From a virus, in UHGV virus genome UHGV-1380528: 47,910 nt of DNA. One strand, given 5' to 3'. The first letter of the stretch is position 1; every line of letters begins with the position of its first letter. Shown one piece after another: positions 19,006 through 47,003 of this stretch. The notes beneath the pieces are model-generated. The model worked only from the letters and a program-made list of their open reading frames with translations. It made no database searches and had not been told where the DNA came from. A program made the translations under genes and the position numbers.

Positions 19006-19226
19006 TGTACAGAAAGGGTAGTGCCATAGCGTTTGCCTTCAATTGCGTTGATGGCATTAAGGTGGGTGAGAAGAGAGAGGTTGATATGGACGAGTTGCGA
19101 TATCAATGTGTAAGTCTGGCAACGATGAGGGGCTCGCTTTATTCAATATCGCTATCAAGCATGTTTACGCTAAAAACCAAATTAAATGGTAACCGCTCAA
19201 AACTCATCATCGAAAGGATTGAGTGA
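19006..19226 (+). CDS. hypothetical protein (73 aa)
   Basis: GGAGGGG RBS 8 nt upstream of ATG 19006. Confidence 0.4.
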
Positions 19227-20713
19227 TGACGATAAAGACAATCTACGACCTTACCGCCGACATCAAAAAAGATGTCTGGTATGACATCACCAGACCTCCT
19301 GGACTTGCCGGTGAAATAGCTGATGATATTGCCGCTGGTGAAGTGCGAGAACAGCCAAGATTGCGCGCTGTGGCAGCACTGCATGAACTGGTCATTGCCA
19401 GCAAAGGTAAAATTAAAACTCCAAGCGGCATGAAAGGAAACTTGCTGACCATCTGTATTGCTGATTCTGCCGGTGGTAAAGACCGCTCTCAAAGTCACTT
19501 CAAGATGATCGCCAGAGATATCGACAAAGGTCAGCACGTTTTTGGCCGCATAGCATCATCAAAAGATATCGGGCGCACACTGATAAATCACGAAGGCGTG
19601 GCAACATTTATTATTGATGAATGCCATGGTCTTTTTGGAGTGATGTCACAAAAGAATGGCGCCACCTATATGGCGGAACTTGGCTCTGAAATTCTCTCAA
19701 TCTACTCAGACCGCCTGAAAAAATTCTCTGACCTTGATGCCATTAACGCGAAAGAGTTGCTGGAGAAGGAGTTAAAAAAACTGCGCGCAGAAGTTAAGGA
19801 TAAAGGCATCGTTGAGACCGAGTATCGTCGCCGTGAAATGCAACTCGAAAGAGAGATTTTGTGGCCTATCCAGAACGGGATAGAAGACCCTATATTTTCA
19901 ATGATGTGTTTCTCAACGCCTGAAAAACTGGCAAGCATCATCTGCTCTGAAAACATTGGCACCGGCCTTATTGGTCGTGCGATATTCATCAAAGGAAAAG
20001 ATGGCCGAGCAAGGAAAGCAAAAAAATTCGGTCACAAGACGCCGCCATCTCTTATCGAGAAGATGAAACAGATAGAGAAATCAGCACCAACCGTGGCTAG
20101 GTACGAAGATACAATGGTTGAGCAACTTGCCGAATCTCTTGATGATCGTTTTGAGGAGTTGCGGAATGATGTTGCGCTAGGGGCTGTAATATCACGTTCA
20201 TTTGAGCAAGTGGAAAAGGTTGCAACAGCTCTTTCAGCTGGCAATAAAGGAGTCATTACAGAAGCTATGCTGATGTGGGCTTATTGCTTTGTATGCGAAA
20301 GCCTTACTGACGTTATGAGCATGCTTAAAGTGAATGAAAGCCAGGAGGAACTCGGTACTATGGCACGCTGGAACGAGATAAAAAACAGAATTGAAAACGT
20401 GCTTTCTGGTCGCACCAGAGATGACTCAATGCCTCAGTCAAGCATTATTCAGCGAGTAGTTAAAACAAAGTCGCTAAAAGGGCTGGCGGAAGCTATTGCT
20501 CGTGCCAATGGAGAGGATTTTAATTTCGGCGCAAAAACACTTATCACGCCAGTAATTATGGCGCTAATGGAATCACGCGCCATTGATGCCGTCGGTTGCA
20601 GTTACTGGATTAACGACGCGAGCAAGTTTGAGTCGACAAAAATGAGCATTAAATTTTCTCAGATTGTTGAGGGTATCGGTATGAATATGGCTGCGCAGAG
20701 AGGTTGGAGATGA
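19223..20713 (+). CDS. putative replication initiation/ATPase-like protein (496 aa)
   Basis: Large first gene of rightward operon adjacent to iteron region; deviant P-loop-like ADSAGGKD and FIIDECHG (Walker-B-like). Confidence 0.35.
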   Translation: MMTIKTIYDLTADIKKDVWYDITRPPGLAGEIADDIAAGEVREQPRLRAVAALHELVIASKGKIKTPSGMKGNLLTICIADSAGGKDRSQSHFKMIARDIDKGQHVFGRIASSKDIGRTLINHEGVATFIIDECHGLFGVMSQKNGATYMAELGSEILSIYSDRLKKFSDLDAINAKELLEKELKKLRAEVKDKGIVETEYRRREMQLEREILWPIQNGIEDPIFSMMCFSTPEKLASIICSENIGTGLIGRAIFIKGKDGRARKAKKFGHKTPPSLIEKMKQIEKSAPTVARYEDTMVEQLAESLDDRFEELRNDVALGAVISRSFEQVEKVATALSAGNKGVITEAMLMWAYCFVCESLTDVMSMLKVNESQEELGTMARWNEIKNRIENVLSGRTRDDSMPQSSIIQRVVKTKSLKGLAEAIARANGEDFNFGAKTLITPVIMALMESRAIDAVGCSYWINDASKFESTKMSIKFSQIVEGIGMNMAAQRGWR

Positions 20714-20938: not shown

Positions 20939-21808
20939 CTAAAATAGTTCTTCTGGTTTATACAGCCTTTTTCTGATGGCGCCGCTGTAACGGATATCCT
21001 GCCCGTCATCGGTAATCAGTATCGGCAGACCTGCATTCTCGGCGGCGCATACTTCATCGAAATTATTATTAATGATGCAGCGTAGTTTGGCTCGTTGCTC
21101 ATCGCTAACATTGCGCACAACTTCCCACATGTTTTCAGGCGACCAGCAACACCAGACATGAGCTCCGGTAAGCCGATGCGCTCGCCATGCGTCAAAATAA
21201 TTGGCTACAAGGTATGCCCACTCTGTTTTTTCACCAATCGGTGTAACAGCGCCGCGCGTCAACCTTCCGCGAGTGTACTCATGGCTGAAACCAGCACGAA
21301 ATGACACGCTTTCATCATCTGCCAGAAAAGCCACATTGCATGGCGTCATGGTTCCAGCCATATAGAGTGGTATCGCCACCAGTTCACCAGTTTTGCCGGT
21401 TATAGTGTCGCCTCCTGCTTTTTCCATGATGGCCGTCACTTCTGCCTCTGTCAGGTAGTCAGAAGCATGGTTGACCTTCGGAAGTTGCTTTCTAATCGCC
21501 TCAAGTTTTTCGCGTGGGTGCATGTTCAGAAATCCGGCCAATGCCTCCATTGACTCTGGAAACGTCATTCCTGACAGCTTCATTAGCCAGGTGATTCCGC
21601 TGCCGTTTCCGCACTGGTTGCAGATGGCGCCGCCGTCACCTTTTGTTTCGAAGTTGTTGTCCCACCTAAACCTGTCCTTACCCATGCAGTGAGGGCAAGG
21701 CTGATGCTTCCCAGTAAAAACATTCCTATCAATATTCACTATTGAGAGTAGCGCGGCCTCCCAGTTTCCTAGCATTAAAGGCTCTATATCTTTCCAGTCG
21801 TATCGCAT
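20939..21808 (-). CDS. DNA primase (Cys4 zinc ribbon plus TOPRIM-like)
   Basis: CPHCMGKDRFRWD...CNQCG zinc-binding motif; ILITDDGQD acidic motif. Confidence 0.55.
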   Translation of the reverse strand: MRYDWKDIEPLMLGNWEAALLSIVNIDRNVFTGKHQPCPHCMGKDRFRWDNNFETKGDGGAICNQCGNGSGITWLMKLSGMTFPESMEALAGFLNMHPREKLEAIRKQLPKVNHASDYLTEAEVTAIMEKAGGDTITGKTGELVAIPLYMAGTMTPCNVAFLADDESVSFRAGFSHEYTRGRLTRGAVTPIGEKTEWAYLVANYFDAWRAHRLTGAHVWCCWSPENMWEVVRNVSDEQRAKLRCIINNNFDEVCAAENAGLPILITDDGQDIRYSGAIRKRLYKPEELF

Positions 21809-43973: not shown

Positions 43974-44002
43974 GTTGACGTAGATTGAGGGTGTAGCTAT
44001 AG
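43974..44002 (+). promoter_or_regulatory. promoter TTGACG-17-TATAGT including TTGACGTAGATTG motif
   Basis: -35 43974..43979, -10 TATAGT 43997..44002; upstream of 44044 gene. Confidence 0.55.
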
Positions 44003-44043
44003 TGATGACGTAGAAACAACAATAAATGTTAGAGGTGATGAAG

Positions 44044-44361
44044 ATGAATGAATTCAAAGGTACACCGGGACCGTGGTTTGGAGATAACAGCAGGGCAATA
44101 GGGCCAAAATCAACAGAGGACGACCAGTCTTATGGAATGATTATTCCTGTCGGCTGGGTTGAGTTTGACCCTGAAGTTGAGGTTCAAGTTGCCAACCAAC
44201 GAATGATGGCCGCCGCACCTGAATTGCTGGAAGCACTTCAATTATTAATGGCTGAGCAAACAGGTGGTAATAAGTCATGCGGCCATAATGGTTTTACATG
44301 CATGTGCCTATATGACAAAGCGCGTGCCGCAATCGCCAAAGCACTTGGAGAATCCCAATGA
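44044..44361 (+). CDS. hypothetical protein (105 aa, MNEFKGTPGPWFG...)
   Basis: AGAGG RBS 9 nt upstream of ATG 44044. Confidence 0.45.
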   Translation: MNEFKGTPGPWFGDNSRAIGPKSTEDDQSYGMIIPVGWVEFDPEVEVQVANQRMMAAAPELLEALQLLMAEQTGGNKSCGHNGFTCMCLYDKARAAIAKALGESQ

Positions 44362-44474
44362 TCCGCCAGGAAATCCGCAAAGAAGACCTGAAAGCGTGGC
44401 GCATTTTCAAGATTAAGCTGACATTAATCGTTATCGGATTCGCCATTGCCAGCGCAATCTGTTTATCAAAGTGA
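44358..44474 (+). CDS. small membrane protein (38 aa)
   Basis: ATGA overlap; hydrophobic LTLIVIGFAIASAICL. Confidence 0.3.
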   Translation: MIRQEIRKEDLKAWRIFKIKLTLIVIGFAIASAICLSK

Positions 44475-44481
44475 GGAAAAG

Positions 44482-45297
44482 ATGACATCTCTCGGAAAAA
44501 TTTACTCAGACAAAGAAACTCGCGGCGGAATCGTGGTCAACAAAGGTTATCAGGTTCCTGTCGACCAGCTTTATCTTGAGCCAGGCTACAACATCCGCGA
44601 AGCCGATGAGCAGCACGTTGAATACTTCGCGCAGTGCTGGGAATCAGGCCAGCCAATCCCGGCGTTAACTGTTATTCCTGATGCTGACGGAAAGCGCATT
44701 AAGATTCTTGACGGCCAGCATCGTTATCTTGGCGCACTTCGTGCCATTGAGCACGGAGTACCAATTGCGCGCATTGAGTGCAAAGACTTCACCGGCGATG
44801 AAGCGGATAAAATCGCCTTCATGGTGTCTTCCAGTCAGGGTAAGCAACTCGACCCGCTTGAGCGCGCAAAGGCCTACGTGAGACTGAAAGGCTTCGGATG
44901 GACGAATGAAGAAATCGCCAAAAAGGTTGGTCGCTCAGTTTCTGATGTACAGATGCACCTGTCACTTGGTGATGTACCTGATGCTATCAAGCAACGTATC
45001 AATGCAGGACAAATCAGCTATGCCAACGCCGTTGCAGTGGCACGTGAGCATGGCGATGATGCCGTTAACGTTATTGATGCTGCCGTTGAGGAAGCGAAAG
45101 CGCAGGGCAAGGATAAGGTGACGGCGAAAACGCTCAAGGCCAAAAAAGTTAAGCCGATTGACCGTCTGATTCAGTTGCTGAAAGAAGCAGACCACATGGT
45201 TGTCGCTGAGGGGCATGTCGCACAGGAGACAGAAGAATTTTTGCGCCTTCCTTCTGCGGAATTGAATGAAGTGCTGGCGATTCTGGAGAAGCTGTGA
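44482..45297 (+). CDS. ParB/Srx-like nuclease domain protein
   Basis: KILDGQHRYLGALRA ParB-box signature; GAGGAAAAG RBS; coupled to downstream MTase. Confidence 0.65.
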   Translation: MTSLGKIYSDKETRGGIVVNKGYQVPVDQLYLEPGYNIREADEQHVEYFAQCWESGQPIPALTVIPDADGKRIKILDGQHRYLGALRAIEHGVPIARIECKDFTGDEADKIAFMVSSSQGKQLDPLERAKAYVRLKGFGWTNEEIAKKVGRSVSDVQMHLSLGDVPDAIKQRINAGQISYANAVAVAREHGDDAVNVIDAAVEEAKAQGKDKVTAKTLKAKKVKPIDRLIQLLKEADHMVVAEGHVAQETEEFLRLPSAELNEVLAILEKL

Positions 45298-46001
45298 TGA
45301 TTATAAATGAAGATGTGCAATTGATTCATGGTGATTGCCTGGAAGTTATGAGGTCTATTCCGGCAGGTAGCGTTGATTTGGTTTTGTGCGACTTACCATA
45401 TGGCACCACTCAGAATAAGTGGGATTCAATAATTCCATTTGGTGATTTATGGAATTCTTATAACCGTGTCTGTAGTGGTTTGATAGTGCTTACAGCGAGC
45501 CAGCCATTTAGTAGTGCGCTTGTTATGAGTAATGCATCAGGATTTAGATACGAGTGGGTGTGGGTGAAAACAAAAATAACTGGCGTTTTAAACGCCAAGA
45601 GAATGCCAGTAAGAAAACACGAGCAAATACTAGTTTTTGGTAATGGTAAAACATATAACGCACAAGGACTAGTGAGAAAAGGGACGAAAACAAAGCAGGG
45701 TGGGTGTAGTAGTAATTATGGCATCCGATCGCACGAAGATTATGTGCAGGAATGGACAAATTGGCCGCGAGACGTTTTAGAGATAGCGTCATAAGGTAAA
45801 ACAGTACACCCCACCCAAAAACCAGTCGCACTTATGGAATATCTTGTAAGAACGTACACCAATGAAGGTGAAACAGTGTTGGACAACTGCATGGGCAGCG
45901 GAACCACCGGCGTGGCGTGCGTGAATACAGGGCGCAGATTTATAGGAATCGAAAAAGATGATGGGTATTTTGAAGTGGCAAAAAAAAGGATTTTAGGATG
46001 A
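45294..46001 (+). pseudogene. beta-class DNA N6A/N4C methyltransferase interrupted by in-frame TAA at 45792..45794
   Basis: N-part has DPPY motif (LVLCDLPYGT); after TAA the same frame continues [13 protein letters not shown]...[15 protein letters not shown]...GRRFIGIE (AdoMet motif I). Confidence 0.6.
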
Positions 46002-46174
46002 ACCACGAACAATTCATAGAGAAAAACCTGCGCGAAAAACTTCCAGGCATCGACAACGCGGCCATAGAGGCCGCAATTACCCACCACAGGCGCAACCAGA
46101 GTGAAAATAAAGGCAAGATTTTCGATGAATGCCTGAGGGTTGCAAAACAACACATGATAAAGGTGAAGTGATGA
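45998..46174 (+). CDS. small protein (58 aa)
   Basis: ATGA overlaps with flanking genes. Confidence 0.35.
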
Positions 46175-46707
46175 AATTAAAAATCAGCAAATTACTTCTT
46201 GAAGGCGCGTTGATGTTCCATGCCAAACAGGATGTTCGCTATTACCTGAATGGCATTTGCTTTATGCCTGATGGTCGCGTTGCCGCTACTGACGGTCATC
46301 GCGCCATGATTGCCAGTAAGCATGAAAATAAATTGAAAGATAACGTTATCGTTTCTGTCAGCAAGTCGCCAACTAAGCGTTATGCGTATGCTCTACTGGA
46401 CACCAAAACAGGTATTGTTACTTACCATGACGAGCATGAAATCATGGTAGGCGCTGGTATCTGTTCTGAGATTGATGGTCGATTCCCTGATATTGATCGC
46501 ATTATTCCAAAGCAGACCGCGCCAACAGAGCAGATTGGATTTAATGCCAAGTATCTGGCAGATGTTGAGAAGCTGGCAAAGCTGTTTAACCCGAAGTATG
46601 AGGCGGTACTATTTGAGCTTAATGGAAACACCAGCGCCGCCGTTGCAAACATCAGTGCGTCTACTGGCGAGACTGCAAAAGTTATCGTTATGCCGATGAG
46701 GATTTAG
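46171..46707 (+). CDS. truncated DNA polymerase III beta sliding-clamp (DnaN) homolog, 178 aa
   Basis: Recalled alignment to E. coli DnaN: QDVRYYLNG, ATDGHR, DGRFPD..RIIPK, IGFNAKYL(A)DV and C-terminal VIVMPMRI match DnaN domain II plus C-terminal half of domain III; domain I absent. Confidence 0.65.
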   Translation: MKLKISKLLLEGALMFHAKQDVRYYLNGICFMPDGRVAATDGHRAMIASKHENKLKDNVIVSVSKSPTKRYAYALLDTKTGIVTYHDEHEIMVGAGICSEIDGRFPDIDRIIPKQTAPTEQIGFNAKYLADVEKLAKLFNPKYEAVLFELNGNTSAAVANISASTGETAKVIVMPMRI

Positions 46708-46732
46708 CAGCGCGCTATAGTCGCCATAACCA

Positions 46733-46762
46733 CAATAAAAAACCCGCAAACAAGCGGGTTTA
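46733..46762. terminator. rho-independent terminator (strong on minus strand)
   Basis: aacccgcaaacaagcgggtt hairpin, AAAAAA upstream gives T-run on minus strand. Confidence 0.6.
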
Positions 46763-46764
46763 TT

Positions 46765-46959
46765 TTACTTGGTTTTCTTCGCCTTTGGCTGCGATTCTTG
46801 CGGAGTTGCAACTTCCAGAATTTTCTCACTAACCGGGCGAAGTTTTGACTCAATGTGCGGAGTGGATTCGTCAATCACGTCGCCAATAGCAAGCTCACGT
46901 AGGCGACCGTCTTTATCCTTGATGAAGATTCCGCTGGCGATTACTTCATATTTAGCCAT
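46765..46959 (-). CDS. hypothetical protein (64 aa) downstream of capsid gene
   Basis: ORF bracketed by two terminators. Confidence 0.4.
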   Translation of the reverse strand: MAKYEVIASGIFIKDKDGRLRELAIGDVIDESTPHIESKLRPVSEKILEVATPQESQPKAKKTK

Positions 46960-46976
46960 GATAACCTCTGATAGTT

Positions 46977-47003
46977 AAAAGGGGCTTTCGCCCCTTTTTT
47001 TTT
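46977..47003. terminator. rho-independent terminator after major capsid gene
   Basis: ggggctttcgcccc hairpin with TTTTTTTTT. Confidence 0.7.

Follow-up and report, generated by a model that had tools for sequence, protein, structure and literature searches.

The β sliding clamp of Escherichia coli, DnaN (b3701; TIGR00663; PF00712, PF02767, PF02768), is a protein of 366 residues, and a shorter product of the same gene, β*, was described in 1996 in papers in J Biol Chem (Skaliter, Paz-Elizur and Livneh). It reportedly arises from an internal start, has a mass of ~26 kDa, comprises domains II and III, and assembles as a PCNA-like trimer able to sustain processive synthesis; the E. coli segment from M135 to L366 has 232 residues and a mass of 25,967 Da. 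Short phage homologs of the β subunit of DNA polymerase III (Pol III), of ~170-230 residues and covering the domain II-III region only, were already noted in 2011, in a study that set aside horizontally acquired clamp homologs, which it assumed to be probably dispensable, and that likened loader-less viral clamp homologs with a raised isoelectric point (pI) to UL42 and UL44 (PMC3201878). We found no functional or structural study of this short form in the literature searched. Here we analyze one such protein, of 178 residues, which we refer to as the mini-clamp and which is encoded on the viral genome UHGV-1380528 (47,910 nucleotides, the whole of the stretch analyzed, hereafter the window). 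It is a new member of this catalogued, functionally uncharacterized phage family, and we lean towards the view that it acts as a stand-alone docking pocket, outside any ring, for proteins carrying a clamp-binding motif (CBM).

Compared with DnaN, the mini-clamp lacks domain I, residues equivalent to E. coli 253-311 and the ring interface, and it is basic rather than acidic; at the sequence level, it retains the CBM pocket. Its N terminus falls in nearly the same place as that of β* (the phage M1 corresponds approximately to E. coli residue 130), and both lack domain I. Unlike β*, which keeps all of domain III, the mini-clamp is without E. coli 253-311 and would be unable to repeat a six-domain ring assembly. 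Among cellular proteins, β* is its closest analogue. The viral processivity proteins UL42 (a monomer) and UL44 (a C-shaped dimer) have two complete domains and no detectable sequence relationship to the mini-clamp. Twort Gp168 (PDB 7evp) and the Mu protein MuC (PMC12867686) bind the host clamp, whereas the mini-clamp imitates it, the common theme being manipulation of the clamp hub by phages.

The similarity between the mini-clamp and DnaN is far above chance. A profile of the family aligned with E. coli DnaN with a probability of 99.7% (hhalign; E = 1.1e-26), and a phmmer search against PDB chains returned γ-proteobacterial β clamps with E values of 1e-12 to 1e-14. A preliminary description of the locus had listed five DnaN motifs in the protein, and all of them were confirmed against the sequence of E. 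coli K-12 DnaN. QDVRYYLNG and ATDGHR are identical to E. coli 149-157 and 171-176, DGRFPDIDRIIPK (pattern DGRFPDxxRxxPK) corresponds to DGRFPDYRRVLPK at 238-250, IGFNAKYLADV corresponds to IGFNVSYVLDV at 317-327, and the C-terminal VMPMRI corresponds to VMPMRL. In a Pfam search, PF02767 scored 20.2 and PF02768 scored 15.0, both below the cut-off of 27, and there was no match to PF00712, the N-terminal domain of DnaN; the score of TIGR00663 (NCBIfam) was 41.3 bits against a cut-off of 137.65, which places the protein outside the DnaN family as that model delimits it. An AlphaFold2 monomer model, built on an alignment of 57 sequences, was confident, with a pLDDT of 92.2 and a predicted TM-score (pTM) of 0.87. 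Foldseek, one of the checks that the preliminary description had proposed, gave E. coli β as the top match of this model (E = 2e-8; query-normalized TM 0.60-0.67), and phage models of 178-196 residues in BFVD superposed on it with TMq values of 0.84-0.90. The predicted fold is unambiguously that of a β clamp, and the assignment as a DnaN homolog stands.

By hhalign, residues 11-117 of the mini-clamp matched E. coli 140-252, i.e., domain II, with a 10-residue deletion at E. coli 205-214, while E. coli 253-311 had no counterpart. A second phmmer domain aligned residues 111-178 with E. coli 305-366, and hhalign placed the C-terminal unit at E. coli 312-366, in agreement with the earlier proposal that the protein covers domain II and only the second half of domain III. 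It thus keeps three consecutive half-domains, the two of domain II and the C-terminal one of domain III, which jointly make up the junction where the CBM pocket lies. The head-to-tail ring interface is carried by domain I and by the N-terminal half of domain III, and both of these have been lost. The dimer interface of E. coli β is formed by I78, R103 and F106 with I272, L273, E298 and E304 (PMC11139829); the first three lie in domain I and the remainder in E. coli 253-311, so that all fall in segments that are absent from the mini-clamp. Because of this absence, the mini-clamp would be unable to close a canonical ring or to co-assemble with host β. As the preliminary description had held, it is predicted not to be a normal three-domain ring protomer.

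The missing half of domain III is a property of the family. The segment equivalent to E. coli 250-316 (between the equivalents of P113 and I122) is 67 residues long in E. coli and only 5-19 residues long in 195 of 196 members, and the deletion of E. coli 253-311 therefore defines the family. The β clamp has an internal pseudo-symmetry. From this, together with published residue lists (PMC11139829), we infer that the half-domains follow one another round the ring in the order Ib-Ia-IIb-IIa-IIIb-IIIa. With that order, the retained IIb-IIa-IIIb would represent a contiguous quarter arc centered on the pocket, and the parts lost would be the two ends responsible for contacts within the ring. DSSP analysis of the model revealed no helix between the strands at residues 59-63 and 73-77, and the second helix of domain II is shortened or lost in the clade to which this phage belongs.

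The part that has been kept is the pocket. In E. coli β, subsites I and II of the CBM pocket are listed within residues 152-177, 242-247 and 320-365 (PMC11139829). When these were mapped onto the mini-clamp, all 18 pocket residues were aligned and 14 were identical, which bears out the earlier statement that the residues of the peptide-binding cleft are retained; the four differences (L177A, V247I, V344T and V360I) are conservative. The elements of subsite I hold the equivalents of R152, L155, T172, G174, H175, R176 and L177. Across the 196 family members, the mean frequency of the top residue was 0.77 at pocket positions and 0.35 elsewhere, and 12 of the 18 pocket residues were among the 25 most conserved of the 178 columns (hypergeometric P = 4e-8). 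The other top conserved columns, corresponding to Y153, Y154, G157, D238, G239, F241 and D243, are the scaffold of the pocket motifs. Conservation across this alignment revealed no second, family-specific patch, and every one of the top columns is a position at which DnaN is conserved as well.

The gene itself is functional and under strong purifying selection: the ratio of nonsynonymous to synonymous substitution rates (dN/dS) had a median of 0.107 and a range of 0.044-0.222 in 124 pairs from the Roufvirus-like clade. An alternative ATG at 46129 would give a protein of 192 residues. We preferred the 178-residue form, and rejected the longer one, because the start methionine of the former is invariant in an alignment of 57 diverse relatives, because its ATG overlaps the stop codon of an upstream open reading frame (ORF) of 57 residues (TGATG), and because a Shine-Dalgarno-like AAGGTGA precedes it. 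The TGATG overlap also suggests that the 57-residue ORF and the mini-clamp are translationally coupled.

The family is large and has been given conflicting names. The mini-clamp matched PHROG 3007 over its full length (residues 1-178; E = 2e-58) and also matched PHROG 947, "processivity factor". A scan of 1.84 billion representatives yielded 2,520 matches at E <= 1e-3; nearly all of the best 150 of these were 170-220 residues long, and lengths in the family run from 160 to 259 residues with a mode of 170-199. The start methionine, the length and the motifs are conserved across hundreds of clusters at 50% identity. Relatives are present in 283 phage records, with up to 96% identity in Klebsiella phages and more distant forms in EP23 and Bcep781. 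In its length and domain coverage the mini-clamp belongs with the short homologs reported in 2011 (PMC3201878), and the novelty implied by the preliminary description was overstated. What is added here is that the first half of domain III is missing throughout the family, that this clade has in addition lost a domain II helix, and that the conserved core is the CBM pocket. Many GenBank records name the family "DNA polymerase III beta subunit", whereas PHROG 3007 and RefSeq (e.g., NC_042037.1 gp46) label it "RusA-like Holliday junction resolvase". The latter name can be rejected, since there was no RusA match in Pfam at E <= 10 and the fold is that of a β clamp. The family gene has also been used as a "DNA polymerase" phylogenetic marker, with no remark on its size (PMC9901506). 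Several of the longer members carry, after the MPMR motif, a C-terminal extension with a recurring motif of a small residue followed by tryptophan (DTAW, SEAW, PAW, PSW), which may be a tail that binds a partner or the protein itself.

At 47.9 kb, about genome length, the window represents the near-complete genome of a Roufvirus-like siphophage. When positions 44000-47000 of the window were used as a 3-kb query, Aeromonas phage pIS4-A, Vibrio phage pYD38-A and several Klebsiella phages were 92-94% identical over an aligned 66-73% of it. The mini-clamp gene is the last of a plus-strand cassette that lies between oppositely oriented structural operons (Table 1), and a terminator-like hairpin separates the cassette from the capsid operon converging on it. 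The neighbor described earlier as a ParB-like nuclease is a ParB/KorB-type helix-turn-helix (HTH) protein, with no nuclease domain detected by Pfam. The methyltransferase frame that follows is interrupted by an in-frame stop just before the HPTQKP motif, which makes it either a pseudogene or the product of a sequencing error, and the phage collection contained nothing closely matching this allele at the DNA level. What occupies the slot between the ParB-like gene and the 57-residue ORF varies, from nothing in pIS4-A to a methyltransferase of 309 residues in RSU-F4K5.

Table 1. Features of the mini-clamp gene and its cassette; positions are those of the window and E. coli numbers refer to DnaN
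Feature	Coordinates	Strand	Basis
Mini β-clamp (DnaN-like) coding sequence, 178 residues, ATG start, stop codon included	46171..46707	+	ORF list and sequence
Domain II-like part, residues 1-117, approximately E. coli 130-252	46171..46521	+	hhalign
β-α-β-β-β unit, residues 118-178, C-terminal half of domain III (E. coli 312-366)	46522..46704	+	hhalign, phmmer
Pocket subsite I: QDVRYYLNG (residues 20-28) and ATDGHR (residues 39-44)	46228..46302	+	Residue mapping; family conservation 0.57-0.99
Domain II-III linker DGRFPDIDRIIPK (residues 102-114), equivalents of P242, R246 and V247	46474..46512	+	hhalign, mapping
Pocket subsite II: IGFNAKYLADV (residues 122-132), N125 = N320, Y128 = Y323	46534..46566	+	hhalign, mapping
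C-terminal VMPMRI (residues 173-178), M174/P175/M176/R177 = M362/P363/M364/R365	46687..46704	+	phmmer, hhalign, mapping
Candidate σ70-like promoter, TTGACG-17-TATAGT, 10/12 matches	43975..44003	+	Consensus match only
First ORF of the cassette, 111 residues, hypothetical	44026..44361	+	ORF list
ParB/KorB-type HTH protein, 283 residues, conserved in the cassettes of this clade	44446..45297	+	Pfam HTH_ParB 4e-11, KorB 3e-6
N6/N4 DNA methyltransferase (PF01555) frame with a single in-frame stop at 45792-45794	45294..46001	+	Variable cargo slot
Upstream ORF, 57 residues, hypothetical, conserved in the Roufvirus-like clade	45998..46171	+	ORF list; no Pfam match
Bidirectional intrinsic-terminator-like hairpin, 33 nucleotides past the mini-clamp stop	46740..46761		Sequence

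The replication-type genes of the window, at about 19-27 kb, are distant from this cassette and comprise primase-like genes, an SF2 helicase, a PD-(D/E)XK exonuclease, AAA_24 and SSB. No DNA polymerase and no clamp loader were found among the window ORFs of at least 150 residues, and the annotated relative RSU-F4K5 is likewise without a polymerase gene; this phage therefore has to rely on host Pol III. The two primase-like genes of the window are convergent on opposite strands, at 19223-20713 (+) and 20939-21808 (-), and correspond to phrog_33132 (a full-length match) and to the Zn-ribbon primase of phrog_510. RSU-F4K5 has one primase of 772 residues in place of this pair.

To compare gene settings among relatives, ORFs were called in 80 related viral loci, representing 21 clades at 60% identity, and their neighbors were clustered. 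No neighbor family was common to more than 4 of the 21 clades, i.e., there was no conserved partner gene in these loci. The ParB-like gene and the 57-residue ORF occurred in a single 60%-identity linkage group, and there in Roufvirus-like loci alone; of the 34 loci in that group, 19 have the ParB/KorB-type gene. In lambdoid relatives (loci L026-L041) the mini-clamp gene lies between cII (PF05269) and the gene for replication protein O; one clade has it immediately after a family-A polymerase gene, and in four clades such a gene is no more than six genes away; in other loci it comes after a Dam methyltransferase gene or Bro-N/ORF6N genes, and in Dhillonvirus it stands alone among structural genes. 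The placing in an accessory island, apart from replication genes, that was proposed earlier is thus correct for the separate cassette of this phage and is not general, given the clades with the gene beside a family-A polymerase or between cII and O.

Methyltransferases of two families occurred within ~3 kb of the mini-clamp gene in 4 of the 21 clades, an association that we set aside as too weak, methyltransferases being common in phages. Dam-type adenine methyltransferases (PF05869) lie directly upstream or within ~3 kb in three other clades (L045:9195-9926, L047:9292-9933 and L003:258-749, the last a 'DNA N-6-adenine-methyltransferase' identified by its GenBank annotation alone). A search for CBM-like motifs in the phage's own proteins gave three matches in 15,200 residues, one of which, QMHLSL, is at residues 169-174 of the ParB/KorB-type neighbor, inside the HTH; this is probably the usual ParB helix and a chance match. 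Directly upstream of the mini-clamp gene in lambdoid relatives, the C-terminal tails QITINF and QVTMDF resemble a hexameric clamp-binding motif, and they belong to λ-type CII (PF05269; e.g., L030:3348-3638 and L035:6559-6852). The CII of λ ends likewise, although λ has no mini-clamp gene. We have therefore rejected these tails as evidence of a partnership, regarding them as the ordinary C terminus of λ-type CII.

How might such a protein work? In the scheme that we find somewhat better than evenly balanced, the mini-clamp would fold as a soluble quarter-arc that neither encircles DNA nor needs a clamp loader, and its conserved pocket would capture proteins with a Q-L-x-L-F-type motif away from the ring. 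Candidate host partners would be the α, ε and δ subunits of Pol III, Hda, polymerases I, II, IV and V, MutS and MutL, and ligase; in other clades, the phage's own family-A polymerase may be captured. The mini-clamp would then compete with the host β ring and rewire the network of clamp interactions in early infection, and capture could be either inhibitory, as by a decoy, or productive, as by a tether or adaptor. Both the binding of CBM peptides in the pocket and the non-ring state of the protein are inferences from the sequence. We commit ourselves to capture off the ring because a monomeric variant of β still binds its partners, and because the affinity of δ for monomeric β is ~50-fold higher than its affinity for the dimer (PMC11139829). 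The scheme is also supported by the lack of a polymerase among the larger ORFs of the window, so that host replication proteins are needed. More tentatively, the mini-clamp might be a clamp mimic that strips CBM proteins (δ or the clamp loader, Hda, MutL/MutS, translesion polymerases, Pol III) from the host clamp, or redirects them, early in infection, possibly as a head-to-head dimer with two pockets.

Several points weigh against a docking pocket. The pocket motifs are also the most conserved, fold-defining motifs of DnaN generally, and their conservation could partly reflect structural constraint, or could partly stem from the collection of homologs by similarity to those same motifs. The mini-clamp lacks F278 and the 274-278 loop, with which some ligands make contact. 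An indiscriminate decoy would also harm a phage that depends on host Pol III. Finally, the genomic context varies by clade (the ParB cassette; between cII and O; next to PolA; next to Dam), and because of this a single function throughout the family is an assumption.

Pocket capture could take the form of simple inhibition, i.e., an early excess of a decoy, or sponge, that titrates CBM proteins from the host ring and shuts down or deregulates host replication or repair, with the δ wrench or clamp loader, Hda, MutS/MutL and translesion polymerases as the candidate targets. This sub-case, which we regard as possible and somewhat doubtful, is consistent with the conservation of the pocket while every ring and DNA-channel feature has been reduced, with the preference of δ for monomeric β, and with the self-contained, moron-like unit, equipped with a promoter-like site and a terminator of its own, that carries the gene among structural genes in Roufvirus-like phages and Dhillonvirus. 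It is harder to reconcile with a phage that has no polymerase of its own, whose replication would be stopped by a block on Pol III or on loading unless that block were selective, and with the clades in which the gene is inside a replication module. Such clades, where the gene is beside a family-A polymerase or between cII and O, are in keeping with a loader-independent tether or processivity adaptor resembling herpesvirus UL42 and UL44, which would bind DNA or a phage replisome protein and hold Pol III (PolA in other clades) via the pocket. The mini-clamp has a pI of 8.8 and a net charge of +2.9, against a pI of 5.3 for the equivalent fragment of E. coli DnaN, and it was loader-less viral homologs of raised pI that were likened to UL42 and UL44 (PMC3201878). 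However, pI is heterogeneous in the family (median 7.6, with 28% of members below 6.5), this clade has lost one of the helices that line the channel, the family alignment showed no second conserved surface, and in this phage the gene is outside the replication module. We consider a tether doubtful.

A sliding clamp of unusual stoichiometry, which the preliminary description had also raised, seems improbable. Four copies (4 x 3 half-domains = 12) might form a ring, or two might pair head-to-head via the orphan half-domain to give a C-shaped clamp with two pockets; the half-domain count is compatible with this, the orphan half of domain III would otherwise expose the surface that packs against its missing partner, and parallels are offered by E. 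coli β*, reported to act as a trimer, and by the head-to-head C-clamp of UL44 (for the latter, PMC3201878). Head-to-tail closure, however, would juxtapose two 'b'-type half-domains, for which there would be no native counterpart on the order derived from the residue lists (PMC11139829); the channel helix is missing, no clamp loader was seen among window ORFs of at least 150 residues, and the model is already confident as a monomer (pTM 0.87). An inert remnant of a captured host dnaN, or a RusA-like resolvase, is very improbable. The former would agree with the assumption that horizontally acquired clamp homologs are dispensable (PMC3201878), and the latter with the label in PHROG 3007 and RefSeq. 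Against a remnant stand the strong purifying selection on the gene and the start methionine, length and motifs kept across hundreds of clusters, and against a resolvase stand the clamp fold and the lack of a RusA match. General homology to DnaN is all that speaks for the poison subunit of the preliminary description, which would co-assemble with host DnaN and break the ring; both sides of the dimer interface (domain I and E. coli 253-311) are absent, and we have rejected this idea as extremely improbable. Apart from this one of its three options, the functional interpretation given in that description appears plausible.

For annotation, these results correct the propagated name "RusA-like Holliday junction resolvase" and warn against treating the mini-clamp gene as a marker for "DNA polymerase" when phage phylogenies are built (PMC9901506). 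All bacterial polymerases, mismatch repair, Hda and ligase gain access to DNA by way of the β-clamp pocket, a hub that is also a target for antibiotics. If the mini-clamp does act as a docking pocket, it would provide a minimal scaffold (~20 kDa, monomeric) for screening pocket ligands, and if it is a clamp mimic, it would represent a new class of host-takeover factor directed at a central hub of bacterial replication and repair. It could also explain how siphophages that lack a polymerase engage host Pol III. If phages across many genera do make a minimal, soluble form of the pocket, they would possess a natural tool to rewire or block this hub.
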